Both the position numbers and the translations under genes were made by a program. From positions 371,261 to 435,260 of the forward strand of contig JAWLHY010000005.1 in NCBI GenBank assembly GCA_041690135.1: a stretch of DNA of 64,000 nt, given 5' to 3'. The notes beneath the pieces are model-generated. The model did not search any database and was not told where the DNA came from. It saw only the letters and a program-made list of their open reading frames with translations. Positions 19,818 through 43,159 of this stretch are shown one piece after another. This stretch comes from Armatimonadota bacterium. GTDB lineage: Bacteria; Armatimonadota; SYMT01. Numbering within the stretch: the stretch's first letter is position 1; the number at the start of each line of letters is the position of its first letter.

Positions 19818-22622
19818 TCATGTGGGCAATGCGCCCGGCGCGAGAAGCCAATTCCAGTCCGTCTGGGTGAAGGAACCAGTGCGGAACCGTTCTCGCAGAG
19901 CGTGGACGTCGGGAGCGAGGTTGGGGACCGCTTCCTCTGCGGCGACCGCTTCGGCGTGGGGCATGGCGTCGGCGGCGAGGTCTGCGAGCGTCAGCACAGG
20001 AAGGCTACAGGTACCGCTGCGTACGAGCTGCTGCACGGCAGTGATGACTGCAATCTCCTGGGGCAGCTCGGCATGGAGGTTGCGTGCGAGGAAACGGCCG
20101 CCGACCTCAGGAGCGTTTACGGCGCCAGCGGAGCGGAGCGGAACCGTGCCGTCTCCGCGAGTGTTGGCGGTGCCAAATAGGTTGGCGACGGTGGGGTGCC
20201 GTTGGCTGACGACCAGGTAGGCACGCGTCAGCAGCGGACTGCCGCTGATCTTGCCCTTCAGCGCGCGGCTGCGCTTGAGGTGCAACTCGGAGGGCGCCAA
20301 CTGTGGATCCGGCCAGCCGTTGGTGCGGTAGAGGGGGTGCGCGTCCCCGAAAACGGCGGGGTCTGGCAGCATGTCGAGCAGGCCGGAGAGCGAGCAGGCC
20401 ATCAGCTGGAAATCGCGAACGGTATCGTTCCGTGATAGGAACGCGAGCTTCTTGAGGGTATCGTAGGTGCCGAGCACGGCCTGCATCGACGCATAGCTCC
20501 CGTGCAGGGGGGAGCCCAGCAGCACTGCGCTCTCCACCCGATCGCTCCATTCCCGGTGCCGGGCCGCGTAGAGGCAGGCCACCAGACCACCCATCGAGTG
20601 GGCGACGAGCGCGAACCTTTTGTGCGGACGCTGGGCGGCGAGTTCCTCGATGAACCGGTGGAGACTGTCCGCCAGTGCTTCGATCGGCTTGCGCCAATCG
20701 TAGGAGAACTCGTTGACTACGAACCCGGCGTTGCGCCAAGTTCGGGAGGCGCGGGCGTAGGTGAGCCGGAGCATGCCGTCCGGCTTGAGCACCTGCCCCG
20801 AGGTGGCTTCGCGCACGCCGTCCGGATCGAGCGAGAGGCGCTCGGCCAGATCGCCCGCGAAGAACGCCAGGGGGTTGATCCAGAGCCGCCCGCCCATGCC
20901 GGCGGTGCGGGCTAGGTGCCCGCCGAGGATGCCGTGGATGAAGACGATCTCCGGCAGCGCGGGATCGGCGCGGCGCCCGAAGAGCCCTGACAGGAACGAT
21001 TCCTCCAGGGCGACGGACTCCACCGTGGGCTCCCCGAGCGATACCAGGGTCAGTTCCCGGATGAGGGCATCAGCCTCCGCGGGCGGCAGCACCGCGTAGA
21101 GGCGCCGGGCCGTTTCGGCGGGATGGTCCTGCAGCTCGGCGGCGATGGCCGCATCATCGGTCTGCTCGTACCAGGCGGTGGGCGAGACCGCTTCCGGCGC
21201 TGCTGCCGGGGTCAGCCCGAGGGACGCCGGCGCGGGCAACGGAGGACCGGGCGCTGCTGGGGCCGGCGTGCCAGTCTCGCTCGCCGCCGGGTTGGAGCGG
21301 GCCGCGCGCCGCGTGTAGACGGTGGGACCGGAGCCGCGGTAGGTGTCCCAGTAACGGAGCCATTCCGGATCCGGCTGCTCCGGCGCGTCTTCCGGCACAG
21401 GGCTGAACCGGAAGCCCAGCGCCCGCAGGTAGGGATCTCGAGCCAGCTCCCAGGCGGGCACCGCCCAGTTGGTGAGCAGGTACTGCCCCGCGAAGTGGAG
21501 GCCGATCACCTCTCCCGTGAGCAGATCGAGGATCGCAGAGCCGGAGTTACCGGTTAGAGTGGAGCAGTCGTGCGTGAGCGCCTCCACCTCCGGGCGATTG
21601 AGGGGCGCAAAGCGGGAGAGCGGCTCCCGGCCGCCGTTCCGCACCATGCCCAGGAGCCCGGGGAGGAGCCGCTTGCGGCCGTAGATTCCCCGGAACTCCC
21701 GGTCCTGGACCTCTACGTTGGAGAAGGGGTTCCGGTGCGGATAGCCCACGGTGACCACGTAGCGGCTCTCCAGCGGGCCGGCGGGGCGGACGGAGGCGAG
21801 GGTCAACGGGCGGGGCATCGCAGCCCCTAGCGGCGCCCGCACGGCCAGGACCGCGGCGTCCCAGTATGGGTGGATAAGGGCGACGTCTTCCACCTCCAGC
21901 AGCACTGGCGCCGGCTCCGGGGTGCCGGACGGGTGGACCTCACGGCGGGTGTCCAGAGCCGCCGCTCCGGGCCGGTAGGAGAGCGTACCGCTGCCGGGGT
22001 GCCCATGACCCGACGCGAACAGCTGCGCGACGTGCCGATTCGTCAGCAGCAGCCCCTCCCCCACGAAGAAGGCGGTGCCGCCGAACGGACGGAGCGGGTC
22101 CTGCGGCAGTTCCACGCGGCCAATGGCGGGGAGGGCGGCCTCCAGCAGTTCCCGCTCCCGGGGGCGGCCGAGGAATTCGAAAGGGAAGGCCGGCGTCTGG
22201 TACGTACCGCCGGTGACGTCGATGACGGGGCGCTCTCCGGGCAGGATCACCTCTTCCAGCACTAACGCTTCCCGGGCGGTGAGTGGGTCCCCGTTCACCA
22301 GCTTGGTGACTACGTTCTGCGCGGTGCGGATCGTCTCGTCGGTAAGCCCTGGCGATGGGAGGGTGAAGGACTCGAAGGCCGCTTCCTCCCGGGCAGCCTG
22401 CTGCTGCCGGGACGTCAGCATCCGGGCGACGCTTTCCTCATTGATCGGCCGCGCGGGTGGGAGCAGAGCCGGCGCGCTTCCTTCCGCCGGGATCCCCTCT
22501 TCTTCTCCCCGCTGGAATCGCTCGTGGAAGGCCTGCGCGGGCCGATCCGAAGGGATTTTGCGTACCTGCTCGAAGTAGCGCAGGAGACGCTGCTGGTGGG
22601 CAGGAGAGTACGGATCGCTCAT
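19818..22622 (-). CDS. trypsin-like serine protease fused to an alpha/beta-hydrolase (lipase/acyltransferase-like)
   Basis: Protease triad LLTNRHVA, WDAAVL, HDCSTLTGNSGS. Pro/Ala linker. Hydrolase motifs FIHGILG, FSYDWRK, VAHSMGG, GDGTVP. AAAGGA RBS before ATG 22622. Confidence 0.85.
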   Translation of the reverse strand: MSDPYSPAHQQRLLRYFEQVRKIPSDRPAQAFHERFQRGEEEGIPAEGSAPALLPPARPINEESVARMLTSRQQQAAREEAAFESFTLPSPGLTDETIRTAQNVVTKLVNGDPLTAREALVLEEVILPGERPVIDVTGGTYQTPAFPFEFLGRPRERELLEAALPAIGRVELPQDPLRPFGGTAFFVGEGLLLTNRHVAQLFASGHGHPGSGTLSYRPGAAALDTRREVHPSGTPEPAPVLLEVEDVALIHPYWDAAVLAVRAPLGAAMPRPLTLASVRPAGPLESRYVVTVGYPHRNPFSNVEVQDREFRGIYGRKRLLPGLLGMVRNGGREPLSRFAPLNRPEVEALTHDCSTLTGNSGSAILDLLTGEVIGLHFAGQYLLTNWAVPAWELARDPYLRALGFRFSPVPEDAPEQPDPEWLRYWDTYRGSGPTVYTRRAARSNPAASETGTPAPAAPGPPLPAPASLGLTPAAAPEAVSPTAWYEQTDDAAIAAELQDHPAETARRLYAVLPPAEADALIRELTLVSLGEPTVESVALEESFLSGLFGRRADPALPEIVFIHGILGGHLARTAGMGGRLWINPLAFFAGDLAERLSLDPDGVREATSGQVLKPDGMLRLTYARASRTWRNAGFVVNEFSYDWRKPIEALADSLHRFIEELAAQRPHKRFALVAHSMGGLVACLYAARHREWSDRVESAVLLGSPLHGSYASMQAVLGTYDTLKKLAFLSRNDTVRDFQLMACSLSGLLDMLPDPAVFGDAHPLYRTNGWPDPQLAPSELHLKRSRALKGKISGSPLLTRAYLVVSQRHPTVANLFGTANTRGDGTVPLRSAGAVNAPEVGGRFLARNLHAELPQEIAVITAVQQLVRSGTCSLPVLTLADLAADAMPHAEAVAAEEAVPNLAPDVHALRERFRTGSFTQTDWNWLLAPGALPT

Positions 22623-23186
22623 GGATCTATCCTTTAAGTTACAGGCGAACCGGCGACCGGGCGTGGGGACGGCCTGAGGCGACCGGCAATGCAGGGAACT
22701 TTCTACCGGATGGTTGAACAATAGAGGGTGTCATTCCTCGCTCTGGGGGTAACGAGGCTGCCCGTATTGAGATGAGTGCCGGTTGAGCCTGCGCCTGGTG
22801 AGCGAGCTAGGGGCTACAGGGGGCAAAGCCTGCCTGCGCAGGCTGGGAGTTCCGGCACTCAACCAACGGTCTTCCCGAGAGGCGGGTACAAGCATGGTCT
22901 ATTTGTGCTCGCCAGGACCCCGGACGAGAGATCCAATCGGGAGGCAGGTACCGGTCTGGCCTGGTGCCGAGATCCCTCCTGCAGTTAGGATGACTCCTTA
23001 TGGGGGGCGACAATGCCCGGGTACGGTATTTTGTAAGTGGAAGCCGTTCAGTAGTGTTGCGTTCAGGATAACTGGTCCCGCAAGGTGTGAAATGCGTGAA
23101 TGCCGTTGTTTGAGACCCACTACGACGAACCGGTTTCTGCTTTCGGTCAGCAATAGGTCAGCATTCGAACTACCTGACTACCGACT

Positions 23187-24371
23187 ATGCCCACACTCAC
23201 GCGAGCTCAAGAAGATAACCTGATCCGGATCCTCTCCCGGCATCCGGATTTCCAGACGGCGGAGGACCGGCTGCGGTTGCTGCTGCAGATCATCCCAACC
23301 GCGGCGGACGGGGACGAGACCGCGTACCACGTGAACCTGGGAAAGGATGCCATCCGGGTCGCGGAGGGATTGCTCGCGCAGCTCAAGTTCGAGGGGGTGG
23401 GCCCGGACGGGGTCCACCGCCTGCGGCACATGGTAGCCGGTCTGCGGGAGAAGGTGCGAGACGAGCGGGACCGGGGACGGCTAGCGGGGATGCTCACCTA
23501 CCTGGACCAGCACACCCCGGCGGTGGCGCCGCCCCCGCCGCCCCCGGCGCCGCTCCGCCCGGACCCGCAGCCGCGGCTGGACCCCGCGGACTGGCGGGGC
23601 AAGAATTCCGACGCACCGCCGTATGAGAAGGTGGTGCGGGTAAATACGCTGCGGCAGTTCTATCTGCTGGAGCGTGCGGTGCCTGCTTCACGCGGGGTGT
23701 TCCGCATCGAGGGACGTCCACCCGGCACGGAAGGCGAGCCGGCGGCTTCCACCGGCTTCCTCATCGCCCGCGGTGTGGAGACGGCCCCCGGCGGACCAAG
23801 GGTGGCGCTAGCGATGACGAACCACCACGTGATCGCCACTCTGGAAGAGTTCCCCGGTTATGAGTGCTGGTTCAATTACCGGCTTGACCTGGACGGCCGC
23901 GAGCCGGTGCCCTCGCCGCAAGGGTTCTGCAAGCTGCAGCCGCTGCCGCTGGCCGAGTGGTTCTTTACGGACGCGGGGCTGGACGTAACGGTGTTTGCGC
24001 TCGACGATGCGGTGGTGCCGGCGAATGCGGTGGCTCTGGGGGTGCGAGAGGCCCGCCCACTGGAGGGGGCGCGGGTGCCGATCATTCAGCACCCGAACGG
24101 GGAGTACCTGCAGATCTCGTTCCAGAGCAACTTCATCGCGTACGCGAACGACGAGATCCTGCAATACACCACTACTACCCTGCCCGGCTCTTCGGGCTCC
24201 CCTGTGTTCAATGAGCGGTTCGAGGTGATCGGGATCCACTCAATGGGCGGGGACCTGCCCCACCCCGGTCAGCCAGGACTGACTACCCTAATCAACCAGG
24301 GCACTTCAATCAAGGCGATCCTGGCGGTTCTGCCGGGGGCTATCCGTGGGCGGGTTATGGTGCTGGGGTAA
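23187..24371 (+). CDS. effector-associated-domain (EAD8-like) trypsin-like peptidase
   Basis: ~100-aa helical N-domain, poly-Pro linker, then STGFLI, MTNHHVI, LDVTVF, IIQHPNG, TLPGSSGSPVFN. Confidence 0.82.
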   Translation: MPTLTRAQEDNLIRILSRHPDFQTAEDRLRLLLQIIPTAADGDETAYHVNLGKDAIRVAEGLLAQLKFEGVGPDGVHRLRHMVAGLREKVRDERDRGRLAGMLTYLDQHTPAVAPPPPPPAPLRPDPQPRLDPADWRGKNSDAPPYEKVVRVNTLRQFYLLERAVPASRGVFRIEGRPPGTEGEPAASTGFLIARGVETAPGGPRVALAMTNHHVIATLEEFPGYECWFNYRLDLDGREPVPSPQGFCKLQPLPLAEWFFTDAGLDVTVFALDDAVVPANAVALGVREARPLEGARVPIIQHPNGEYLQISFQSNFIAYANDEILQYTTTTLPGSSGSPVFNERFEVIGIHSMGGDLPHPGQPGLTTLINQGTSIKAILAVLPGAIRGRVMVLG

Positions 24372-24693
24372 GGTTGTGGGCTCGGGCAGAGCGGCCCGAC
24401 GGTCGTAGTCTTGGCGCCGAACTTCGCGAATCGCTCGGATGTCATACCGTTCGTATGGCAGAGGGACAGGAAGCCAGGAAGCCAAGAGTGATGCCAAGCG
24501 ACTGAACTCGCGGCTATAAAACGCGAAGCGAGCCTTCGCAGGGTGTAGCACCGACCTATCCACCCGCTCGCCCTTGAGTGGAGGGGGAGGTGTTAGCCCG
24601 GCTGACGGACAATTAACACTTGGGAGACAGCGGCTAATCCGAATAAGCCGCGACGAGGCACTGTCGTCTCCGGTACTGGTCTTGAGTTCGAAC

Positions 24694-26253
24694 GTGCTCT
24701 TTCCACTGTTACAACCGGCCGACGAACGGCTGCTCCGCGACTATCTGCTCTCCGTGCTGGCACGAACCGGAGACGAGCCGGAGCGGCGCCGGGCCTTGTG
24801 CAAATACTTGCCGGACTCGGTAGCCCAGCTGCCGGCGGAGGCGTGGCTGACCGAGAGGCGGCTGCGACTGGACCGATCCCACGCTGAGATCCTGGAGCAG
24901 TTCTTCGAAGCGCTTCAGAGCCATCCGCCGGCGCTGTTGGCGCACTTGGAAGTGCTGAGCCAGAGCGTGAAGGACGGGCCGACACGCGAGGAGTTCGCGC
25001 GGATGCGGGACGGGCTGCGGTTGGCCCTCGATCCGCTGACGGAGGCGCAGCGCCTTCTGGACGCCGCCGCTTCGGCGGACCCGGACGTCCTTCCGGACGC
25101 ACTGGCCGCCGGTCTCTGGAAGGCGCTGGGGAAGCGCGAGTCGGGTACGTTCTGGCAGGCGGTGGCGCTGCTGGTGCCGCATCCCGCCCGCACTTACCAG
25201 GAGTCGGGACAGGAAGTGCTGCGCCTGCCGCTAGTGGTGGCGCTGGAGCGAACCGCGGCCCGGGTGGGCTTGTCCGGGCCAGACCGGACCCAGTATGGCG
25301 AACTCGTCCAGCAGGCGGTGGAGCGTCTTTACCCGCCGCCTCCCAAAGCCCCGGAGGCAGACCAAACAGCGCCGGGGCCTACCGCGCCGGCCTTCGATCC
25401 GATCACCGTGTACGTGCTGGCACTCGGCTCTAACACCCTGAGCACGGCGGACACGCGCTACCGGCTGTGGTACACGGATCCGCAGGGAGACCGCGGCGCC
25501 CGAGACCTGACCGGCACCCTGAAGGAACTGCAGGCCGGCTTCTCCGCCTGGATCAGTGACGTCCTGTTCGAGTGGTCCGGCGATACCCCACTGGTGGAGT
25601 TTGTGCTGCCCGAGGAGTGCCTGGAGTGGGACGTGGAGCGTTGGGAAGTGGCCCTCAACCCGCGCAACCCAGCCACCGGAAAGCCGATTGGCACGGCGTT
25701 TCCGGTGGTGCTGCGGAACTGGGGGCGGTACGAAGCTCGGCCGCACATCAAGCGCCTGGAGCGCCGCTGCAAGGAGTTGAAGGGCACCGGCACCCTGTAC
25801 TGGTGCCACGAGCCGGCTCATGAGCCGGGCTTGCCGGTCTACCTGGACCACTCGGACTGCCGGACGGTGCTCTACCTGGGCGCGGGCTACCCCTTGCAGC
25901 GGACCGGCGGTAGAAACCTCTGGCTGGCGGTACTCCGGAACGGGGTTCCAGTAGTGATCTGGCGCCGCACCGCCGGCAGCGGAGCGGTGCCCATCCCGGA
26001 CCAACTGGAGAAGCTACTCCATCAGGCACAGCGTCTCCACCCGTTCAACGAGCTGCCAAGTAAGATCAAGGACTGGCGCAGCCTGGTGATCCAGGAGCCA
26101 CCGCAGTACGACGACACGGCGGATGAGGTCTCCCTGCTCTGGGAGAACCCCTACCGGCTCCCCGCCGCCCCACCCCTGCCCGAGGGGGCACCCACCGCAC
26201 CCGACGAAGCTCGCCCGGCGCCGGCGCCCACCAGCACGGGGCGGATCGATTGA
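24694..26253 (+). CDS. vWA-MoxR-associated protein (VMAP, C-terminal VMAP-C domain)
   Basis: PLVEFVLP..WDVERWE, IGTAFPVVLR, GVPVVIWRR, SLLWENPYRLP; lies directly upstream of MoxR. Start uncertain (ORF open from 24574; GTG 24694 chosen). Confidence 0.8.
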   Translation: MLFPLLQPADERLLRDYLLSVLARTGDEPERRRALCKYLPDSVAQLPAEAWLTERRLRLDRSHAEILEQFFEALQSHPPALLAHLEVLSQSVKDGPTREEFARMRDGLRLALDPLTEAQRLLDAAASADPDVLPDALAAGLWKALGKRESGTFWQAVALLVPHPARTYQESGQEVLRLPLVVALERTAARVGLSGPDRTQYGELVQQAVERLYPPPPKAPEADQTAPGPTAPAFDPITVYVLALGSNTLSTADTRYRLWYTDPQGDRGARDLTGTLKELQAGFSAWISDVLFEWSGDTPLVEFVLPEECLEWDVERWEVALNPRNPATGKPIGTAFPVVLRNWGRYEARPHIKRLERRCKELKGTGTLYWCHEPAHEPGLPVYLDHSDCRTVLYLGAGYPLQRTGGRNLWLAVLRNGVPVVIWRRTAGSGAVPIPDQLEKLLHQAQRLHPFNELPSKIKDWRSLVIQEPPQYDDTADEVSLLWENPYRLPAAPPLPEGAPTAPDEARPAPAPTSTGRID

Positions 26254-27419
26254 AAACACAGGTATCTCCCATGCAGCTCGAGCCCCCTACAGCTACTCCC
26301 AATCCGGACGTGCCCGCCGACTGGTGGGCATTCCACGGTGACCGCAACGCCGATGAGAAGATCGCGGCGGAGCGACGGTCCCGGCTGGGCCCCGCCCCGC
26401 CCTGGCGGCCGTCCCGGGCCGTGCCGGACAACACCCTCTACACGCCCCGTCCGGAGCCGCTGGGAGAGACCTATCGCTGCGGGAAGGCGGTGATCGAGAT
26501 GGTCAACGCCGCTCTCGTGCTGCGGCGGCCGCTGTTGATCACCGGTGAGCCGGGCAGCGGGAAGTCGTCCCTGGCGTATGCCGTGGCGCGGGAACTGGGC
26601 CTGGGCCGCGTGCTGCGGTGGAACATTACCAGCCGCACCACCCTGCGGGACGGTCTGTACAGCTACGATGCCCTCGGGCGGTTGCAGGCTTCCGACCTGG
26701 GCGGCGACAGTGACCAGGTGGCGGAGATCGGGCAGTTCATCACCCTGGGGCCGCTGGGCACCGCGCTGCTGCCCTGGTCCACACCGCGGGTGCTGCTGAT
26801 CGATGAGATCGATAAGAGCGACGTGGACCTCCCGAACGACCTGCTGCATGTGTTCGAAGAGGGCGAGTTCGAGATCCCGGAACTGGTGCGGCATCCGGAT
26901 CCGGACGACCGGGGCGTGCGGGTGTGGCCGGACAAGGCGGACCGTCCGCCCCTGGACCGAACGAACCCGGTGCCGCCGGAGCAGTACCAGGTAACGGTGC
27001 ACCGGGGCCGGGTGCAGTGCAGCCAGTTCCCCTTCGTGGTGCTGACCAGCAACGCCGAGCGAGAGTTTCCGCCGGCGTTCCTGCGCCGGTGCCTGCGCCT
27101 GCGGCTGCCCCGACCCGGCCGCGACCAACTGAAGGAGATCGTGCGGGCCCACTTCTCCAATCCGGAGCGGCCGGTGCCCTCCGAGACGCAGCTCGACGAG
27201 CTGATCAGCCGGTTTCTCAAGCGGCGGGACGTGGGCGCCCTGGCCAACGACCAGCTGCTGCAGGCGCTGTTCCTGCGGCTGCGGGGCGGGGAGGCGATCG
27301 ACAGCAACCCGGAAGATGACCTCCGGAACCTGATCAACCGGCTGCTCCATCCCCTGAACCAGCCGGAGGCGGCGGTGGAGCCGGACGAGGACGCGGATGA
27401 CGGCTGCGGGCGCGGATAA
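26250..27419 (+). CDS. MoxR-family AAA+ ATPase of the ternary conflict system
   Basis: RRPLLITGEPGSGKSS (Walker A), LLIDEIDKSDVDLPNDLL (Walker B), LTSNAEREFPPAFLRRC. Overlaps the VMAP stop codon. Confidence 0.92.
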   Translation: MKTQVSPMQLEPPTATPNPDVPADWWAFHGDRNADEKIAAERRSRLGPAPPWRPSRAVPDNTLYTPRPEPLGETYRCGKAVIEMVNAALVLRRPLLITGEPGSGKSSLAYAVARELGLGRVLRWNITSRTTLRDGLYSYDALGRLQASDLGGDSDQVAEIGQFITLGPLGTALLPWSTPRVLLIDEIDKSDVDLPNDLLHVFEEGEFEIPELVRHPDPDDRGVRVWPDKADRPPLDRTNPVPPEQYQVTVHRGRVQCSQFPFVVLTSNAEREFPPAFLRRCLRLRLPRPGRDQLKEIVRAHFSNPERPVPSETQLDELISRFLKRRDVGALANDQLLQALFLRLRGGEAIDSNPEDDLRNLINRLLHPLNQPEAAVEPDEDADDGCGRG

Positions 27420-30400
27420 GTCGCCATCGGCGCCGGAATCCCTGATCCAGTTGCTCGACTGCCTGAGCGGGCTGGAAACCCGCCTGCTCGCCGCGGAATT
27501 GGCGGACGTGCTCTGGCTGGCCCAGCGGCTGCCGGAGCGGCAGGCACCTTCCCGGTCCGGGGAGGCGGCCGAGGCACCGGCAACGGAGGAGACGGAGAGC
27601 CCCCGGGATTCGGCCCGGTCCGAGGCCGGATCGCCCGACGGCACGCCTGCCCACACGGACGCCGACTCGGGTACTAACGCGGAGGTCGGACAGGAGAGGG
27701 AACGTCCACCGGGATCTGTCCCACCGACGGACGCCGGGCAGCCGGAGGACGAGCGGATCCGACTATTTCCAGGCCGTCCCAACTCCCCCGAGCAGACGGG
27801 CGCGGGCGAGATGCCTTCTTCCTCATTCCAGGGCACGGCAGCCCGCGCCCTCCCCCGGACCCGGCAGATCCTGCGGGCCCTCCGCCCACTCGCGGGCCGG
27901 GTCCCCTCGCCCCGGCGGGACGAGCTGGAGGTGGACGTCGAGGCAACGCTCGAGCGGATTACGGAGGGGCTGCTGGCTGCCCGCGCTCGTTCGGAAGCCA
28001 GTGGGGCGGCGCGCCGCAACCGTCCCATTCCCCGCACGCCCGTGTTGCGGCCGGCCGAGGTGCGGCCCTACGAGCTGCACCTGGTGGTGGATACCAGCGC
28101 CAGCATGGCGGTGTGGGAGGAGGCTGCGGGAGAGCTGGCACAGCTGCTGGTGGGCCTGGGCAGCTTCTCGGACGTGCGGGTCTGGTACCTAGACACCCAG
28201 TCTGGCGGGGAGCCGCCGCTCTACGCGGGAGTCCGGTGCGGCGGGGGGACCCAACGCGGGGAGCGGCGGTCCGGTGCCGAGCTGCGGGGCGGGGGCGGCA
28301 GCATTCCGGGTGCCGGGGCGCGGCTGGTGCTGGTGCTGACTGACGGCCTGGGGCCAGCATGGTGGGATGGCCGGGCGCTGGACCTGCTGGCCTCCTGGGC
28401 GGACACGGGCCGGGTAACGCTGCTCCAGACGCTGCCGGAGCGGCTCTGGGGCCGCGCGGTGCACGGTGTACCTCGCTGGCTGGTGGGCGCCCACGAGGCC
28501 GGTGTCCCGAACCGGCGGCTGCTCACGGCTCCCCGGCCGGGCGTCCGCAGCGCGGCGCCGGCGAACGCCCCCCGGTATGATCGAGACCCGGAACGAGTTT
28601 ACGTTCCGGTGGTCGCGCTAGACCCGGACCCGCTGCACACCTGGGCGCGACTGATGACCGGACGCGGCGGGGTGTGGCTGCCGGCGTTTCGCATGCGCCT
28701 GAAGTCCTCACCGGCCCAAACCGTCGCGCCTCTCGAGCCCGTAGACCCGGAGGAGCCGGAAACCGAGGCGGCGCGGGCAGCCCGGATGGTACGCGAGTTC
28801 CGGGCTGGCGCCCCCTGGGAGGCACGCCGCCTGGCGGAACTGTTCGCGGCCGTGGGCACCCTCACCATACCGGTGATGCGCGCCATCCAGGATGCGATGG
28901 TGGCCGGCTCCGGGCTGGAGGCACTGGCGGAGGTGCTGGCCAGCGGCCTGCTGGAAGCCCGCGAAGCTGCGGGCGGGACGGTCTACGCTTTCCGTGGAGA
29001 GCAGCACGGGATAGCCCTGCGCCAGCGGCTGTGGCAGCGCGCAAGCGTTCCGGACACGCTGCGGGCCATGCAGACGGCACTGAACGAGCTCCAGCGGAGC
29101 GTGGGGGATTTTCTGGCCGGAATGAACGCCGAAGGTGCAGCCCAGCCGCTCCAGGTGCTTGATCCACAGGGCCTCCAGCGGCTGTCGGCGGACCACGCCC
29201 TGGCGCCGTTCGCGGCGGTGGCGGCGGAGTACCTGGAGTCGCTGGGCGGGCAGTACGTGCGGAGCGCCCGGACGTGGCAGACAGGCATCGCGTTACCGCC
29301 GCATCAAGGAGACGCCGGCGATCCCACGTCGTATTCGCTGAACGATCTGATCGCGTTGTCCCGGAACCTGGACGGACAGGGCCCGTGGCTGCAGGGGAAG
29401 GTACCGCCCATCCATCTCCTCACCGCAGCGGAGAAGCTCGGGGAGCCGATCAGCGCGGTAATGCACCGGCTGGGCCGGTTTGAAGCCCGGTTCGAGCTGG
29501 AGCTGCCGGTGCTCGACGACCTCGAGCTGACGGCACTTGATGAGCCGCTGCCTAACGAAGCCGATCGGATCGTGCTGTCCCACGGTCTGGACGGCCAGAC
29601 GCCCTGGCTGCACGGGCGGGTCGGGAAAGAACACCTCCTGGCAGCGGCCGTCCAACTGCGAGAGCCCGTGGTGACCGTGCGGCAGCGACTGGAGCGGTTC
29701 GCGGCCCTGTTCGAGCTAGAGCTCCCGGCACCCGGCGACCCCTCCCCCACCCAACCCCTGCGGGTCTTCGTCTCGGCGTCGTTCCGGTATTGCCACCAGG
29801 AACGGCGGGCGATCTTGGCGGAGTTGGCCCGGCGCCCGGAGATCGTGGACACCAGTTGGGAAGCACTGCCGGCGGACCAGCGGGACCGGCAGCACCGGCT
29901 GCCGGTGGTGGCCGCATGCGATCTCTTCCTGCTGCTCCCGGGGGAGGGGCCCAGCGCGGGGCTGGAGGCGGAATACGCCGCAGCATTGGAGCACGGGAAG
30001 ACCTGCCTCGCATACTTCCACCGGGACGCGGCACCGCTGGACGAAACCACGCGGGAGTTCTGGAAGAGACTCCGGGACCGGCACGGCGTTCGGACTTATG
30101 GCAGCTCGGAAGAACTGATCCGGCAGGTCTCACTCGACCTCGATTTTGAGCTGGCGCGGCTGACCGGGAAAGTTCAGGAGCACCCGATGGAGGTGGTGGT
30201 CCTGTTCTCGGATGGGCAATGCGCGGCTCTGCCGGTAGGCGTCGGCGTGTTGGACGCGGCGTTCCACGTGGACCCCGAGCTAGGGCTGCGGATGAACGGC
30301 GCGCGCGTGAACGGCGAGGCGGTGCCGCTGAGCTATCAACTCCGTCAACGGGATCAGGTGGAGCTGGTCACGACCCCCCACAGTTATCCGTCCCGGGAGT

Positions 30401-33400
30401 GGCTCGACTGGGTTCAGACCGAGCGGGCGCGGCACGCCATCCGGGACTGGCTGCGCCGCTACCAGGTGTATGTGGCTGCCGGCGAGATTCCCGACATCCC
30501 GGGCCTACAGTTTGAGTGGGCGGTCCGGTCAGACATCCCCGAGAGAGAGCGAGCAGCAGTCCTCCGCGAATGCGGCCTCTTCATAGCCACATTCCGGCCG
30601 CCTGGGTTTGACTACTGGGAAGGGATCCGGGACGGAGATGTGTCGGTGGTCCGTGGCGCAGTAGGACAGCACCTTCCAGAGTTCGCTCTGGCCCGGCGGT
30701 TGGGACTCCGCTGCCTCATCTACCTGTATGACGATGTGGACGGCCGCAAACCCGCGGGAATGCTCACAGCGGAAACACTCTATCGCTGCGCTAATGTCTC
30801 AGAGTTGCGTGAGGCCATGCGCGGCGACTTCCAGGCGGCTGTGGCAAACCAATGGCCGCTAGAGGGGATTCGAGACGGACGAGAGCCCTTGCTCCGCGAC
30901 CTGTACCAAATGCTAGGGCTACCCCCACTACGCAGTGATCTGGAGACCTTCGAGCTCTCGAGGTTCGCTGGCGAGCGAGGATGGTTAGTCCAGGACTTGA
31001 ACCGTCCAAATCTGGCGATGCTGGTGTCCGCCGTGCGGGGTTTGCAGAAGGCACCCGCGGCCGTATGGGCGTTGCCACTGCCGCGAACGAACGTCGAGAA
31101 TGAACTTCTAAACCGCCTGGCAGGCTGGCTGCGCCAGGAACCGGCAAGCTCTCTGCGCGCGCTGCAGCGTTTTTGGGGAATGTGCGGTCGGGCGGCGCAG
31201 CAACCCACTGACGGGCGGGCGGTGGCGGGTTACCTTCTAGCGTTGGTGTGGTTGGGGCAACTAGTAGAGGGGAACTTTGGGAGGGCCGATCCCGCTCTGG
31301 TACTGTCCCCGCTGAATCCCCCCAACCTGCGCGATTTCCTCGTTCTCGTGGGGGGACGGCAGCCGGCGGCGCTCGATTTCCGCATTGCCGTGGATGGTGT
31401 GACAGTGGCGCACCTCCCCCGCCTTCGTCTCGACACACCCGAATCGGAGGTGAGGCGGCAGGCGCTGGAGGTTCCCGAGGTCGTTGAGCGTATCGTGAAC
31501 CGAAACGTCCGCTCTGTCGAGGTGAGCTTCGGGACTGGGGTGACAATTTCCACCGAGCCGGCATCCCACCCATCATTGACTGGATGCCGTGTCCTCTGGT
31601 GTGATCCCAAGCAAGACCGTGTCAATAGCAGGGAGATAAGCTGGCTCCAGCAACACGGCGCCGTGATTGCCCGCGTACCGCCCAGCCACGTTCAGCTAGC
31701 ATTAGGGAGTGGGCTTCCATACGACGCGCTGATTACGAGCATGGGCGGCGTGTTGCCAGAGGAAGATAGTCTGGGCCTTCATGTGGTTAGGATCGCGAGG
31801 CGGCTACGGCCGGAACTCCCGGTGATCCTGTTTACCCACCGCACCGTGCCATCGGTTCAGGAGGCCAGAGAGGCGGGAGTTGCGCTGATCACCCCCAAAG
31901 TTGAGGTGATCCTGCGGGAACTCCAAACGCTGGTCGACCGCCGAACCCCGACCCTGCCCGAGGATTCGGAGGGGTTCTACACGGAGCGCGGTCTTTGCGA
32001 CGTGATCGACCGGTACCAACTCCGGAGTGGGCGCCAGGAAGCCGACGCGGTGCTCACCCTGCTGCTGCTGTTCCGGACGGAGACGCAGCGGACGTGGTTG
32101 GCAACCACCCACCGGCATCTCTACATCTTGCTGGATGATGCGGAGACGCGCGCTACGGGACCGGATACGGAGCGCGTGATCCAGGAAGAACTGACGCTGA
32201 AGGAGGCCCAGCCCGTCTTCAGCAGCGAAGCACGGGAGTGGCTGGAAACGCGTCTTCTCCACATCGGCCGGGCGCGGAACTGGCATTACACGCTCTCCCT
32301 CCACCCGCGTGCGCAGGACCTCGAGGTGACTGTCCGCGAGTTGATTCTTAATGCGAGACACGGTGATCTTAACCCAACATACCGGCAGCTCTTGCTGCTG
32401 GCTGCCGAATACGAGGCCATCCAAGCGACACAAGAGGCCGGTGGCGAGCGCTCACGCCGTTCGGTATCGGTCTACAAGAGGATGCAGCGATCCAGCCAGG
32501 CAGCTGACAGGGCACTGCTTTCCCGCCTAGCTACCAGCGAGAGCCCGGGCGAACGGTTGGCGGCGGTAGCCATCCTTCAGGAGAAGCCAGCTTCGGAGTA
32601 TCTGCACTGGCTAGCTGCCCGCGTGCATGAGGACCAGGCGTTTATCGGGTATCAGGCCGCGCTGGCCCTAACCACGGCGGCCGAGGAACTCAATTCGGTC
32701 TACCTGGAAGAGGTAGGCACAAGCATCCGCTCGGCTCGGGATACACTGACCTCAGAGGTGAAGGCCGGCACTGACACGGATCGCTACCGCGTACTCGAGC
32801 GAGGACTCGAGGTCCTCGTACAGCGCGAGCGGCAGGATGAGGCGCGACAGCGAGAAGCGGACCTCTCGGACCTCGAACAGAAGCTGTGGAGCAGTGATCC
32901 CGAAGAGTGTCTGCGCATCGCGCGGATCCTGCTGGAGACGGAGCGTGCCGAGTCCGGCCGTTCGGCGTTGGTGTACCTGTTGGCGGCCAGCGACGAAACC
33001 ATTCGGCTCGAGGCGGCGCGCCTGCTTCTGCCTGGGCAGCACCAACCGGTAGCGCTGGAGGCGCTGGCGAGTTTGGCAGGGAGCGAGCAGGAGACGGTCC
33101 GCTATTACGCGGCGCAGCTCTTGTTAGAGACGAAGCTCGCCCCACTCGCAGTGGAGACACTCGGCTCGCTGCTCTCGAGCGAGAACACAAAGAACCGCCT
33201 GGAAGCCGCACGACTGTTGCTGAAGACCGATCTGGGTGCGGCGGCCCAGGACGTGCTGCGGAGAGTGTTTGACAGCGACGATGACTCCCTTCGCTTTGAG
33301 GCGGCGCGTCTGTTGGTGGAGACGGGGCATCACAACGCGGCGCTGAAAACGCTGCGTGGGCTGACAACGAGCGACCTCGCGTCGCTGCGCTCGGAAGCGG

Positions 33401-35712
33401 CGCAACTACTGGAGCGGTATCGCCCCGTACCGGCGCGAGAGGGCATGCGGAGAGCGCTGTGCGTGGGGATCGATGATTACCCCACCGCCCCGCTGGGGGG
33501 CTGCGTGGCCGACGCCCGGCTCTGGAGGGAGACGCTCGCCCGGCACCGCTTCACGGAGATCCAGACCCTCTTCAACGGTGAGGCCACCCGCGGCGCGATC
33601 CTGGACCGGCTCCGCGCGCTGATCGCCGTCAGTCGTCCGGGCGATACGGTAGTGTTCCAATTCGCCGGCCGTGGCACCCGGGTGCGTGCCCCGCACAACG
33701 ACGATGTCGACGTGCCGGCGGTAGACGAGGCACTGTGTGCTTACGATTGCGACACCGGCGGGCTACTGACTGACGAGGACCTGGATGAGGTGTTTCGAGC
33801 AGCTCCGGAAGGCATCAACATTACCTGCTTTTGGGACTGCAGCCACTCCGGAACGATTAGCCGCTTTGCTAGCGGAATTGCCCGGGTCACGGCGGCTGAG
33901 TCCAGCCGCTCCCTGGCGCTGACCCCCCAGGGGCAGGTAGCTCATCATAAGGTGCGTCTGGGGCGGATGGAAGCGCCCAGAGCCCCTGGTTGGAGGTCAC
34001 CGATCATATTCTCCGCATGCAGGTCGGATGAAGTGGCGCTCGAGAGCGGTGGGCAAGGGCACTTCACTCTGCGCGCTACCCGGGTGCTTTGGGACGGCAT
34101 CCGCGGGTTAACAAACGCAGGGCTGCACGAGGCGATCATTCGGAGCTTTGGGCCGGCCGCCCGCCAGCATCCGGTGCTCGATTGTGACCCTGAAGTGGTG
34201 AACCAGCCGCTGTTCGCACCGCCCACCGGACGCTCGGCGGGCGATGAGCACCCGTCATATGGTGCAGTTGACAGCAATGTAGTTCAGAAAACGTTGCTTG
34301 CCGTCGGGACCTACGACGCCTTCGTCAGTTACAGTTGCCACGACACGGCCTGGGTTACCGGCGAACTCTTGCCGCGTCTGAAGCTCGCCGGCCTGGATGT
34401 ATGGAGTTTCGCCGAGCGGACGACGGAGCCGGAGTTCACCGACCATGTGCGCCAGGGAGCGATCGCCGCTTCCCGGTGGCACCTGGTGGTGGTCACCCCA
34501 CGGCTGCGCGAAAGCCCGGGGGCGAACGCAGAGATCACCTATCGCCTGGAAGCCGGCCAGCAGCCCGCGCTAGTTCCGCTGCTGGTGGAAGAGTCCGAAC
34601 TGCCTCCGGCATTGGCTGGGTTGGAGTTCATCGACCTGCGTCACCCCCCGGAGTGGGGCCGACAGTTCGAGTTTCTCGCCACCCGCCTGCGGGGCGAACC
34701 TGGAGGGGTGATTTCGGAAGAGATTCTGGCTGCTCCGCACACCGAGGCTGGGGCCGTGCCGGAGAGCCAGGAGCCGCTGGGAGAGGCCTTCCAACGGGCC
34801 GAGGCCCTGGCACGAGAGTATACCGAGACACGCCGGAGAATGAAGGTTGGGGCAGATCGCACCCGAGCGATGTCTCGCATTGCGCAAGACATGCGAGCAC
34901 TTCCGCCCATCCTCCAGCCGTTGGTGTTCAACTGGAGCCGCAGCTCGAATGCCGGGGAACGGCTGCTGGCCATCGAACTGCTGGCTCAGTATCCGAACGC
35001 CGAGTTCCTGGACTGGCTCGCGGCACGCTCGGCGGAGGAGAAGCACTTCCCCGGTTACCGCGGCACGCTTGCCCTGGCGCGCGCAGCGGAACTCCTTCCA
35101 CCGGAACATGCAGCGCAACTGCGCGAAACGCTGGCCGTGGCGCGCGGAAATGCGGAGCGCTCCGGAGACCCCAACCAGGTGTCGGCGGTGGCAACGGCCG
35201 AGAGAGTGCTGGCGGTGCGGCTGAACCCAAGCCCGGACCCTCGGCTCGAGACCCCAGAGCACCAGTCGCAACCGCAACTCCCGGAGCTCACGAACGATCT
35301 CCCCGGCTACCGATCCGAAGCCACCGAATCGGTGCCAGATGCCATCGCGGACTCGCTGGTCGAGGACCTAGCCTACGAGCTCATTAACGAGGACCCGGAC
35401 GTGACCAGCGACATCGCGGAGTCGGGCGCAGTCGCTTTCGGCCCGGACGTCTGGCGCATTTCGGACGCCGGCTTCACCAATTCCGAGGGGACCGAGTTGA
35501 GCTTTCAGTTGAAGCTGTACCTCGAAGGCGAGGCGGAGGACCGTATGGTCGTCAGCACTACATTATTTGTGCAGCTAGACGTCTCCGCGGTCGTTGTCGG
35601 TGACAAATGGGAAGTCACGAACTGGTTCGTACTGGACCACCGCTTGGTCACTGAAGGCCCCATCGAGACATTCGGCGAGCCCGTAGAGGGCCCCTATCAC
35701 TCCGAAGAGTAG
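27397..35712 (+). CDS. 2771-aa vWA (SAV_2336-type N-terminus) multi-effector protein: vWA, 2x wHTH, DUF4062, TGS, receiver, HEAT repeats, caspase-like, TIR
   Basis: ELADVLWLA, DVEATLERI, LVVDTSASMAVW, LVLTDG (vWA); LSRNLDGQGPWL and LSHGLDGQTPWL; RVFVSAS..EAEY; GARVNGEAVPLSYQL..PSREWL; RALCVGIDDY; YDAFVSYS. Confidence 0.88.
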   Translation: MTAAGADKSPSAPESLIQLLDCLSGLETRLLAAELADVLWLAQRLPERQAPSRSGEAAEAPATEETESPRDSARSEAGSPDGTPAHTDADSGTNAEVGQERERPPGSVPPTDAGQPEDERIRLFPGRPNSPEQTGAGEMPSSSFQGTAARALPRTRQILRALRPLAGRVPSPRRDELEVDVEATLERITEGLLAARARSEASGAARRNRPIPRTPVLRPAEVRPYELHLVVDTSASMAVWEEAAGELAQLLVGLGSFSDVRVWYLDTQSGGEPPLYAGVRCGGGTQRGERRSGAELRGGGGSIPGAGARLVLVLTDGLGPAWWDGRALDLLASWADTGRVTLLQTLPERLWGRAVHGVPRWLVGAHEAGVPNRRLLTAPRPGVRSAAPANAPRYDRDPERVYVPVVALDPDPLHTWARLMTGRGGVWLPAFRMRLKSSPAQTVAPLEPVDPEEPETEAARAARMVREFRAGAPWEARRLAELFAAVGTLTIPVMRAIQDAMVAGSGLEALAEVLASGLLEAREAAGGTVYAFRGEQHGIALRQRLWQRASVPDTLRAMQTALNELQRSVGDFLAGMNAEGAAQPLQVLDPQGLQRLSADHALAPFAAVAAEYLESLGGQYVRSARTWQTGIALPPHQGDAGDPTSYSLNDLIALSRNLDGQGPWLQGKVPPIHLLTAAEKLGEPISAVMHRLGRFEARFELELPVLDDLELTALDEPLPNEADRIVLSHGLDGQTPWLHGRVGKEHLLAAAVQLREPVVTVRQRLERFAALFELELPAPGDPSPTQPLRVFVSASFRYCHQERRAILAELARRPEIVDTSWEALPADQRDRQHRLPVVAACDLFLLLPGEGPSAGLEAEYAAALEHGKTCLAYFHRDAAPLDETTREFWKRLRDRHGVRTYGSSEELIRQVSLDLDFELARLTGKVQEHPMEVVVLFSDGQCAALPVGVGVLDAAFHVDPELGLRMNGARVNGEAVPLSYQLRQRDQVELVTTPHSYPSREWLDWVQTERARHAIRDWLRRYQVYVAAGEIPDIPGLQFEWAVRSDIPERERAAVLRECGLFIATFRPPGFDYWEGIRDGDVSVVRGAVGQHLPEFALARRLGLRCLIYLYDDVDGRKPAGMLTAETLYRCANVSELREAMRGDFQAAVANQWPLEGIRDGREPLLRDLYQMLGLPPLRSDLETFELSRFAGERGWLVQDLNRPNLAMLVSAVRGLQKAPAAVWALPLPRTNVENELLNRLAGWLRQEPASSLRALQRFWGMCGRAAQQPTDGRAVAGYLLALVWLGQLVEGNFGRADPALVLSPLNPPNLRDFLVLVGGRQPAALDFRIAVDGVTVAHLPRLRLDTPESEVRRQALEVPEVVERIVNRNVRSVEVSFGTGVTISTEPASHPSLTGCRVLWCDPKQDRVNSREISWLQQHGAVIARVPPSHVQLALGSGLPYDALITSMGGVLPEEDSLGLHVVRIARRLRPELPVILFTHRTVPSVQEAREAGVALITPKVEVILRELQTLVDRRTPTLPEDSEGFYTERGLCDVIDRYQLRSGRQEADAVLTLLLLFRTETQRTWLATTHRHLYILLDDAETRATGPDTERVIQEELTLKEAQPVFSSEAREWLETRLLHIGRARNWHYTLSLHPRAQDLEVTVRELILNARHGDLNPTYRQLLLLAAEYEAIQATQEAGGERSRRSVSVYKRMQRSSQAADRALLSRLATSESPGERLAAVAILQEKPASEYLHWLAARVHEDQAFIGYQAALALTTAAEELNSVYLEEVGTSIRSARDTLTSEVKAGTDTDRYRVLERGLEVLVQRERQDEARQREADLSDLEQKLWSSDPEECLRIARILLETERAESGRSALVYLLAASDETIRLEAARLLLPGQHQPVALEALASLAGSEQETVRYYAAQLLLETKLAPLAVETLGSLLSSENTKNRLEAARLLLKTDLGAAAQDVLRRVFDSDDDSLRFEAARLLVETGHHNAALKTLRGLTTSDLASLRSEAAQLLERYRPVPAREGMRRALCVGIDDYPTAPLGGCVADARLWRETLARHRFTEIQTLFNGEATRGAILDRLRALIAVSRPGDTVVFQFAGRGTRVRAPHNDDVDVPAVDEALCAYDCDTGGLLTDEDLDEVFRAAPEGINITCFWDCSHSGTISRFASGIARVTAAESSRSLALTPQGQVAHHKVRLGRMEAPRAPGWRSPIIFSACRSDEVALESGGQGHFTLRATRVLWDGIRGLTNAGLHEAIIRSFGPAARQHPVLDCDPEVVNQPLFAPPTGRSAGDEHPSYGAVDSNVVQKTLLAVGTYDAFVSYSCHDTAWVTGELLPRLKLAGLDVWSFAERTTEPEFTDHVRQGAIAASRWHLVVVTPRLRESPGANAEITYRLEAGQQPALVPLLVEESELPPALAGLEFIDLRHPPEWGRQFEFLATRLRGEPGGVISEEILAAPHTEAGAVPESQEPLGEAFQRAEALAREYTETRRRMKVGADRTRAMSRIAQDMRALPPILQPLVFNWSRSSNAGERLLAIELLAQYPNAEFLDWLAARSAEEKHFPGYRGTLALARAAELLPPEHAAQLRETLAVARGNAERSGDPNQVSAVATAERVLAVRLNPSPDPRLETPEHQSQPQLPELTNDLPGYRSEATESVPDAIADSLVEDLAYELINEDPDVTSDIAESGAVAFGPDVWRISDAGFTNSEGTELSFQLKLYLEGEAEDRMVVSTTLFVQLDVSAVVVGDKWEVTNWFVLDHRLVTEGPIETFGEPVEGPYHSEE

Positions 35713-40214: not shown

Positions 40215-40487
40215 TCAGTTCCGGTCGGTGAACCAGCCGTCGCTGCCGCCGTCCTGGTCCGGGCGGGCGTATAGGTCGTCCTCGTCGTCCCAGAGCCGGT
40301 CGCGCTCCGCGTCGAACTCTTCCTGGGTGCGGCAGTGCCAGAGGTGGACGTTCACGCGGTCCGGGTGGAAGCGCTGGTCCAGGCTTTCGAGGAAGGCGTC
40401 CGACTCGTATGGGAACGGTGCGGCTTCCCGGTTCCGCGCCTCCTGGGCGGCGCGGATCTCCGGTTTCAGTTCGCGAGTGGGGTCCAC
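40215..40487 (-). CDS. small acidic hypothetical protein
   Basis: Strong AAGGAG RBS before GTG; 90 aa with coding-like composition. Confidence 0.55.
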   Translation of the reverse strand: MDPTRELKPEIRAAQEARNREAAPFPYESDAFLESLDQRFHPDRVNVHLWHCRTQEEFDAERDRLWDDEDDLYARPDQDGGSDGWFTDRN

Positions 40488-40693
40488 GGCGGTCTCCTTC
40501 TCTCCTCTCCACTTCGGCCACTATAGTCCGAGGGTCCGGGGTTGTCCATTGCGGTGCTGATTGGCAGGCACCGCGACGCGGGCCTGGCGCAGAGCAGGCA
40601 GTCGGACACGAATTGCTTGCATCCCCCACTTCCCGCTGCGGGTGCGATGCCGGCGCAGCGGGAAGTGGAGAAATGCGGATTCCGTGGCGGCTC

Positions 40694-42994: not shown

Positions 42995-43159
42995 AACTGG
43001 CCTCCCATTCTTCGCGAGAGAGGAGGGAGGCTGCGCGGGGCAGGACCAGCAAACCCGCCGGTTCTCGCCCGAACACCGGCTCCCCGTGCGCCCTGTTCCC
43101 GTTCGGAGGGGAGATGACACTCGTTTTGTTAGCCTGAGATGCTTTACAGGCGATGCTAC

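Follow-up and report, generated by a model that had tools for sequence, protein, structure and literature searches.

What is a bacterial protein of 2771 residues for, when three of the modules strung along it lack the residues on which their parent families depend? The question is raised by a single uninterrupted frame of 2771 codons on the forward strand, at positions 27397-35712 of the window analysed here, a 64,000-nucleotide (nt) stretch from the genome of an Armatimonadota bacterium (GCA_041690135.1, contig JAWLHY010000005.1, positions 371,261 to 435,260). A preliminary description had cast the product as a giant effector built as an integrated-decoy array, in which inactive TGS, receiver and caspase-like domains would serve as baits for invader proteins and two TIR-fold domains would provide the output. 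Here we assign the protein, from its sequence, as the vWA subunit of the genome's sole VMAP-type MoxR–vWA ternary conflict system, a machinery with a predicted role in immunity. At a probability of about 0.55, its three borrowed modules, unable to do the job of their parent families, act as non-catalytic binders, with the TIR-fold modules as the output.

Identity of the giant protein and its system

VMAP-type vWA–MoxR ternary conflict systems were described by Kaur, Burroughs, Iyer and Aravind (2020, eLife 9:e52696, PMC7159879; hereafter Kaur et al., cited for selected passages), who named Planctomycetes among the phyla with these systems and for whom the anti-invader role is a prediction. The gene order published for the class recurs here on one strand: EAD8–trypsin peptidase, VMAP, MoxR ATPase and vWA component. 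The signature third component, VMAP (24574..26253, +; 559 amino acids (aa)), matches Pfam VMAP-C (PF20028) with E 3.3e-26 and 93 bits against a cut-off of 27. It is followed by a MoxR-type AAA+ ATPase (26250..27419, +; 389 aa; Pfam AAA/AAA_5/bpMoxR), whose gene overlaps those of VMAP and the vWA protein by 4 and 23 nt, respectively. As read in translation, Walker A (GEPGSGKS) and Walker B (LLIDEID) are intact, and the N-terminal motifs WWAFHG and PPWRPS have their counterparts in the WxhapG and PsWRxa motifs of Kaur et al. (PMC7159879).

The giant itself (27397..35712, +; 2771 aa) was mapped with Pfam and NCBIfam scans of the whole protein and of pieces. Residues 32–561 (27490..29079, +) comprise an N-terminal helical extension, a linker, the vWA domain with its MIDAS motif DTSAS (residues 232–236) and a C-terminal extension, and score 311 bits against NCBIfam SAV_2336_NTERM (NF041121; cut-off 200). 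Behind this conserved head follows an unusually long, polyvalent array, with at least 12 modules. Genome-wide, VMAP-C and SAV_2336_NTERM have one match each. Every feature by which a VMAP ternary system is recognized in sequence is present, namely VMAP-C, the MoxR motifs, the vWA extensions, the gene order and a variable array, so that the idea of a free-standing effector gives way to that of a vWA subunit working within a VMAP/MoxR system.

The operon begins with a 394-aa protein (23187..24371, +) in which an EAD8 adaptor is joined to a trypsin-like serine peptidase (Pfam Trypsin_2 E 1.7e-15); EAD8 just passes its cut-off of 27, with 27.5 bits on the N-terminal 110 aa, and the translated peptidase carries the motifs NHHV, DVTVF and GSSGSP. 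The N-terminal 150 residues of VMAP (24574-25023) were not matched by EAD8 in Pfam at E ≤1, and BLASTP of the VMAP N-terminus against the EAD8 of the protease gave nothing significant (E 0.67). Ordinary metabolic genes flank the system, with no mobile-element genes among them.

Relatives and variation of the array

Searches for full-length relatives found none at 1524-4850 aa in ~5.8 billion proteins and none in 40 related genomes, which yielded single-domain matches only. A comparison of nonsynonymous and synonymous rates between orthologues was therefore impossible, and a paralogue, a family-wide test of constraint and a tree were used instead. A look-up of public sequencing runs that contain the gene listed none, RNA runs included. 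The expectation that domain content varies among relatives was borne out, since both related VMAP systems examined (2/2) carry arrays that differ from that of the giant: the vWA protein of genome G018 reads vWA–TIR_2–FGE-sulfatase, and that of G002, of the same family, combines vWA with an AAA_16-like region that ends at the contig end. The G018 system, from a related planctomycete (L014, G018:C119:3000-14928), has as neighbours a gene for a reverse transcriptase and another FGE-sulfatase protein, 1232 aa long, and so probably represents the diversity-generating-retroelement subtype.

A selectively disabled caspase-like module

The caspase-like module (Peptidase_C14, Pfam E 1.9e-14) spans residues 2018–2263 (33448..34185, +). 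The preliminary description had reported the loss of both catalytic residues, and the alignments agree: FAGRG of the giant aligns with ySGHG, and DCSHSG with DSCHSG or DCCHSG, of solved (meta)caspases, placing Arg2092 (nt 33670-33672) at the catalytic His and Ser2149 (nt 33841-33843) at the catalytic Cys. At the codon level, two homologues read CAC and TGC at the sites of CGT and AGC in the giant. The His–Cys dyad that marks an active C14 caspase or metacaspase is absent.

The closest relatives belong to a widespread family in which an Amidase_2 domain stands at the N-terminus, and a caspase at the C-terminus, of a chain of ~950-1000 aa (596 matches at E up to 1e-10); conservation was counted over the best 120 of these 596 homologues. 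All 120 keep both His and Cys, leaving the giant as the sole exception among 121. Its core is otherwise largely retained: it keeps 61 of the 71 positions conserved at ≥95% and 89 of the 108 conserved at ≥80%, where the homologues keep a minimum of 81 and a median of 102. The ten changes at ≥95% positions include H2092R, C2149S, D2098A and D2127E, each at a site invariant in 120/120. One of the relatives, P0154, is encoded on another contig of the same genome (G000; C1:164786-167842) and has intact FAGHG and DCCHSG motifs. Outside a nearly identical tract described below, the giant differs from this active paralogue at 8/52 highly conserved and 39/57 poorly conserved columns (Fisher p 2.6e-8). 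Over the diverged part, the Nei–Gojobori proportions of nonsynonymous (pN) and synonymous (pS) differences are 0.33 and 0.72, giving an omega of ~0.2-0.3 that is only rough because the synonymous distance (dS) is saturated. In a tree of 61 rows from which the tract was excluded, the module clusters with P0154, P0158 and P0160 (ultrafast bootstrap (UFBoot) 99; Shimodaira–Hasegawa-like approximate likelihood ratio test (SH-aLRT) 93). Its terminal branch measures 1.58, ~8 times the median (0.2), a length that makes the placement less certain.

A dyad loss unique among the 121 family members compared, a retained core and substitutions that avoid conserved sites indicate together that the module has been selectively disabled and is not decaying. 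It branched off the lineage of the cell's own active caspase gene, evolves fast under constraint on its fold with its catalytic dyad specifically disabled, and is the only module of the giant for which host origin has been demonstrated. The expectation that the dead domains remain under purifying selection is supported for the caspase (8/52 against 39/57, with pN below pS).

Could the module still be active through other residues? Cys2148 is kept beside Ser2149, just as Asp1403 is kept in the receiver-like module. The replacement of the dyad His by Arg speaks against such activity, as does Ala at position 2098, where 120/120 homologues have Asp, and the phospho-acceptor position of the receiver is Ser; we give continued activity very little credence.

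The active paralogue is the starting point of another explanation, in which the pseudo-caspase would partner or compete with the cell's own amidase–caspase and thereby recruit or restrain it instead of trapping an invader. Catalytically dead caspase homologues act as adaptors or dominant-negative partners in animals, and here an active paralogue of the same clade is present in the same genome. Dominant-negative regulation is also named as an option by Kaur et al. (PMC7159879). The paralogue is nevertheless encoded on a different contig, away from any VMAP system, and we regard a role directed at it as rather improbable.

The C1 protein (L013:7799-10843; ~1000 aa) combines an N-terminal, peptidoglycan-amidase-like Amidase_2 domain, a GHSAG nucleophile-elbow-like motif in its middle and the active C14 caspase at its C-terminus. 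Its gene adjoins one for a metallo-beta-lactamase-fold protein. The amidase–caspase architecture is widespread across phyla, as the 596 matches show; the terms 'amidase' and 'PGRP' are absent from the searched passages of Kaur et al. (PMC7159879).

A gene-conversion-like tract shared with the active paralogue

Codons 2-56 of the caspase module (33453..33613, +) differ from the C1 gene at only 5 of 161 nt, against an identity of 68% for the whole domain, and a run of this kind was reached in 0/10000 permutations. Among codons that encode identical residues, synonymous differences number 6/58 in the first 60 codons and 60/104 in the rest (p 1.8e-9). Identity of the giant within the tract reaches 96% with P0154 and 93% with P0155, an orthologue of the C1 gene from elsewhere; outside it, identity to both falls to 51-54%. 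P0154 and P0157, by comparison, are 77% identical in the tract and 79% outside. High identity of the giant to P0154 and P0155 in the tract only, set against the even level between P0154 and P0157, points to the giant as the recipient. This pattern indicates that gene conversion from the active gene later replaced part of the module, in a direction that we infer from these comparisons. The tract stops 17 codons short of that for Arg2092.

Another explanation would make the borrowed modules accreted, decaying passengers that lack any own function. Such passengers would fit the lack of a full-length relative at near length in ~5.8 billion proteins or in 40 related genomes, the long caspase branch and the strong divergence of the TGS piece. 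They would also fit the base composition: the GC content at third codon positions (GC3) is 0.81-0.86 for residues 1–1022, as in the neighbouring genes, and 0.69-0.80 over the distal 1750 residues, a fall that suggests that these were added later or from elsewhere. Decay is difficult to reconcile with a frame that stays open over 2771 codons, with caspase substitutions that avoid conserved sites while core residues are retained, and with a pN well under pS in that module. Functionless passengers are, in our judgement, very improbable.

TGS and receiver-like modules

Residues 933–1022 (30193..30462, +) form a Rel-type TGS domain with the helical piece that follows it, assigned from Pfam TGS (residues 935-992; E 4.4e-9 on the whole protein, 5.1e-11 on the segment) and from Rel alignments. 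The best matches of this piece are the TGS and following helix of RelA/Rel; the synthetase, hydrolase, ZFD and ACT domains of RelA/SpoT are lacking. AFHVDP occupies residues 955-960, and its Asp959 (nt 30271-30273) aligns with His432 of Escherichia coli RelA (phmmer, 5iqr_8). All seven Rel proteins of the same phylum (7/7), that of the same genome included, read A[FY]R[IV]H[ST][ED] at this site, so that the reported loss of the Rel-conserved His stands. The residue is not catalytic: it contacts the ligand by stacking on the tRNA CCA end, and recognition of that end is abolished by H432E in RelA and by H420E in Bacillus subtilis Rel (PMC7797070, cited for this result). With Asp959 in its place, the giant lacks the His (RelA H432, B. 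subtilis Rel H420) by which a RelA/SpoT-type TGS reads tRNA CCA.

This loss does not stand alone. Identity to Rel is 35-40%, against 58-90% among the Rel proteins themselves, and 19/39 Rel-invariant columns are altered, which makes the piece a poor mimic of Rel; judged from these alignments, the His substitution may be one change among many in a general divergence. A search with the wHTH–DUF4062–TGS cassette among shorter proteins matched only four Rel proteins (E 1.6e-7).

The receiver-like module (residues 1397–1520; 31585..31956, +) scores weakly against Pfam Response_reg directly (E 0.037; 14.6 bits, under the 30.2 cut-off), and a sequence search of the PDB gave nothing significant. Its assignment comes from P0016, a protein of 1417 aa that aligns with residues 1399-1650 of the giant at 32% identity (E 2e-25) and whose aligned stretch is itself a Response_reg match (E 7.6e-10). 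ILWVDD...IISDMG of P0016 stands against VLWCDP...ITSMG of the giant; from this alignment, Asp1403 of the acidic pair is retained, its partner is replaced by Pro1404 (nt 31606-31608) and the phospho-acceptor by Ser1448 (nt 31738-31740). The acidic pair after beta-1 and the phospho-acceptor Asp after beta-3 that mark a response regulator are thereby lost, as the preliminary description had proposed. Both modules are less telling than the caspase module.

TIR-fold modules as candidate output

Two modules of TIR or TIR-like fold are left, judged by their conserved residues, as the sole candidate sources of an enzymatic output that consumes NAD. TIR_2 (residues 2309–2425; 34321..34671, +) is matched by Pfam at E 1.3e-15 and by the TLR1 TIR domain in the PDB at E 1.5e-4. 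Its Glu2379 (nt 34531-34533) is aligned with a Glu in 4/4 other TIR_2 domains compared. DUF4062 (residues 789 to ~925; 29761..30171, +) is TIR-like and weaker as a match (Pfam E 0.0019; 18.8 bits, under the 24.7 cut-off); its LEAEY (residues 856-860) aligns with TELEY of the sole comparator, P0052, so that Glu857 and Glu859 match the Glu pair of that protein. The claim that both modules keep a Glu therefore holds at the level of sequence, and we take the kept residues to be the catalytic Glu, on the strength of the literature rather than of a structure. A PDB sequence search with the DUF4062 module returned nothing significant, its alignment to an NDT-fold CMP N-glycosidase being non-significant. 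DUF4062 has been described as a TIR-like NADase that requires its conserved Glu (bioRxiv 10.64898/2026.05.01.722283, consulted in part).

Possible roles as decoy, binder or trap

The proposal that inactive fused domains of VMAP systems act as decoys or dominant-negative modules is already made by Kaur et al. (PMC7159879), so the decoy idea of the preliminary description restates a published hypothesis. According to the same source, ~70% of effector-position caspases are inactive, and TGS and receiver domains are listed among those fused to vWA. In its sensor form, the idea holds that an invader protein attacking Rel, a response regulator or a caspase binds the bait and switches on the TIR-fold modules in cis. 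The caspase module lends itself to this: it was copied from an active gene of the cell, is disabled yet constrained and appears to have been refreshed by conversion. The Glu of both TIR-fold modules is kept, and for one bacterial sensor related to NLRs an integrated-decoy logic has been put forward (PMC11702601, cited in part). Pfam, however, finds no STAND/NLR domain in the giant, and its system has a MoxR AAA+ protein as ATPase, so that the core by which an NLR integrated decoy is defined is missing. The TGS piece is, as shown above, a poor Rel mimic, no invader factor targeting these domains was identified here, and the published model (PMC7159879) places sensing in VMAP-M and treats the fused domains as effectors. 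The integrated-decoy claim is favoured by the selectively disabled, constrained and host-derived caspase together with the kept Glu; the poor mimicry of Rel and the lack of an NLR core speak against it, and we consider a sensor of this form unlikely.

A more elaborate version would make the giant a multi-bait trap with baits modelled on cellular machinery, in which the pseudo-caspase mimics the cell's own amidase–caspase and is updated by conversion without regaining its catalytic residues. Engagement of a bait by invader factors directed at the caspase, the stringent factor or a phosphorelay would fire the two TIR-fold NADase modules. We hold this to be quite unlikely; if true, it would amount to a bacterial decoy keeping pace with its guardee without any NLR core in the system.

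The reading that we prefer is that of a vWA subunit with non-catalytic binders and a TIR-fold output. The TGS without its His, the receiver without its phospho-acceptor Asp and the caspase without His and Cys would each be a binding module devoid of catalysis, used as a decoy or as a dominant-negative element. The caspase module derives from the gene lineage of the active amidase–hydrolase–caspase of the same cell; it evolved fast under constraint on its fold and then underwent partial conversion. The output would be enzymatic, with DUF4062 and TIR_2 consuming NAD. In the model of Kaur et al. (PMC7159879), MoxR and vWA remodel a complex with VMAP and associated peptidases may free the fused domains; by analogy, the whole array may be held off until MoxR-driven remodelling deploys it, possibly helped by cleavage by the upstream trypsin-like peptidase.

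Several points weigh against this preferred reading, beside the rough omega, the long caspase branch, the general divergence of the TGS piece and the DUF4062 score under the Pfam cut-off. A single conversion event requires no selection. The receiver assignment depends on one homologue, P0016, and the combination of receiver and bacterial PH-like module gave 2 weak matches only in 400 other genomes of the phylum. Kaur et al. (PMC7159879) report that a vWA-fused caspase is nearly always paired with a VMAP-fused caspase plus alpha/beta-hydrolase, whereas the VMAP of this system has no caspase. In the literature searched, no experiments on any VMAP system were found; one 2026 preprint, consulted in part, tests a beta-propeller-type MoxR–vWA pathway.

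Remaining modules of the array

Between the vWA head and DUF4062, Pfam wHTH-HSP90_Na-assoc (E 5e-27) matches two stretches within residues ~645-775 (29329..29721, +), read as two winged-HTH modules. Residues 1023–1396 (30463..31584, +), where the fall in GC3 starts, have no assigned fold: there is no Pfam match, a single-sequence AlphaFold2 (AF2) model is unusable at a predicted local distance difference test (pLDDT) score of 41.6, and the Atlas leads to glycosyltransferases are weak (0.82).

Residues 1023-1900 were searched against 1.84 billion representative proteins, with 725 matches at E up to 0.001, of which the best 150 were examined and 27 were run through Pfam. None of the 149 other matches listed covers residues 1023–1396; at E up to 1e-10 there are 227 matches, and the majority of those listed fall on a helical module further downstream. 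Residues 1521–1655 (31957..32361, +) are a probable bacterial PH-like module, for which Atlas bPH_3 clusters (0.91-0.92) are a lead only, alongside homologues; the PH-like module accompanies the receiver-like module in P0016 as well.

Residues 1656–2010 (32362..33426, +) contain helical module H1, the first copy of a duplicated alpha-solenoid, followed by HEAT repeats (Pfam HEAT_2 E 1.4e-9). Its second copy, H2, occupies residues 2459–2614 (34771..35238, +), with 33% identity to H1 (E 4e-11) and eight helices modelled by AF2 at pLDDT above 90. The chain ends in an acidic linker and a small alpha+beta module (residues 2615–2771; 35239..35709, +) with no Pfam match, modelled as two helices and four strands at pLDDT 50-74. 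Foldseek of the C-terminal AF2 model against the PDB found nothing at E ≤0.001, only generic HEAT/ARM-like repeats.

Among the matches listed, residues ~1521-1655 and the all-helical stretch ~1656-1825 recur in iSTAND, TIR_2, SLOG and DUF4062 proteins. The ~150-residue, HEAT/ARM-like helical module (32362-32871 and 34771-35238) adjoins TIR_2, SLOG, DUF4062 and iSTAND domains in many proteins. Pfam gives weak HEAT_2 matches only for it in these relatives, and it may deserve a family of its own.

Neighbouring genes

Upstream of the operon and divergent from it, a gene at 19818..22721 (-) encodes a 967-aa protein with a trypsin-like peptidase (Pfam Trypsin_2 E 3e-12) and an alpha/beta-hydrolase (LCAT/Abhydrolase_1 E 1e-9 to 1e-10). 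It is a possible accessory of the VMAP system; Pfam found no EAD in its first 200 residues. Farther along the window, an ORF without a family match at 40409-42952 (+) lies antisense to a gene for a DUF7948 and SBBP beta-propeller protein (40694-43120, -) and is probably a shadow frame of this high-GC gene. Elsewhere in the genome, DUF1559 genes with an N-terminal methylation motif, a hallmark of planctomycetes, were seen.

Comparison with known systems

VMAP systems form a large class of predicted immune-like machines, in which the presence of disabled copies of cellular enzymes is the oddest trait. The locus opens no new category. It is an unusually clean case for the published decoy idea, with the active model, C1, and the dead copy encoded side by side in the same cell. 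Alone among 121 sequences in being disabled, the copy remains under constraint and has exchanged sequence with its model in recent times, and the same chain holds two TIR-fold modules as a possible output.

Catalytically dead caspase homologues are familiar from cFLIP and from MCA4 of Trypanosoma brucei, which has Ser at the position of the catalytic Cys. As in these proteins, the giant retains the caspase fold with substituted catalytic residues, and its cell also encodes an active paralogue; unlike in them, both residues of the dyad are replaced, and the pseudo-caspase is one module within a bacterial protein of 2771 aa.

The plant NLR integrated decoys, exemplified by the WRKY domain of RRS1 (Cesari et al. 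2014, as cited in the passages of PMC11702601 used here), share with the giant a host-derived domain that was fused into an immune protein and lost its original job. They differ in that the giant has no NLR/STAND core, carries several different borrowed domains in one chain and belongs to a class whose fused domains are modelled as effectors and not as sensors. Swarozyc and related DUF4062 NADases (bioRxiv 10.64898/2026.05.01.722283) resemble it in a DUF4062-type module with a conserved Glu and auxiliary domains joined to it; Swarozyc, as far as the cited parts of that preprint go, is a stand-alone defence protein with a portal-sensing domain, whereas the DUF4062 of the giant is embedded in a vWA protein.

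The closest likeness is to the VMAP class itself, in the core gene order, the MoxR motifs, the helical extensions of vWA, the adjoining EAD-linked trypsin peptidase and a variable C-terminal array that includes an inactive caspase and TGS, receiver and TIR-type domains. The giant departs from that class in its length, 2771 aa against published peaks of 850-1450 aa, and in its array, which with no fewer than 12 modules reaches or exceeds the stated range of 1-11 domains (PMC7159879, in the passages cited); it departs further in that the active counterpart of its dead caspase sits at an unrelated locus. What sets this locus apart is the size, the lack of a full-length relative and a dead module paired with its active model, down to the conversion tract that joins the two.

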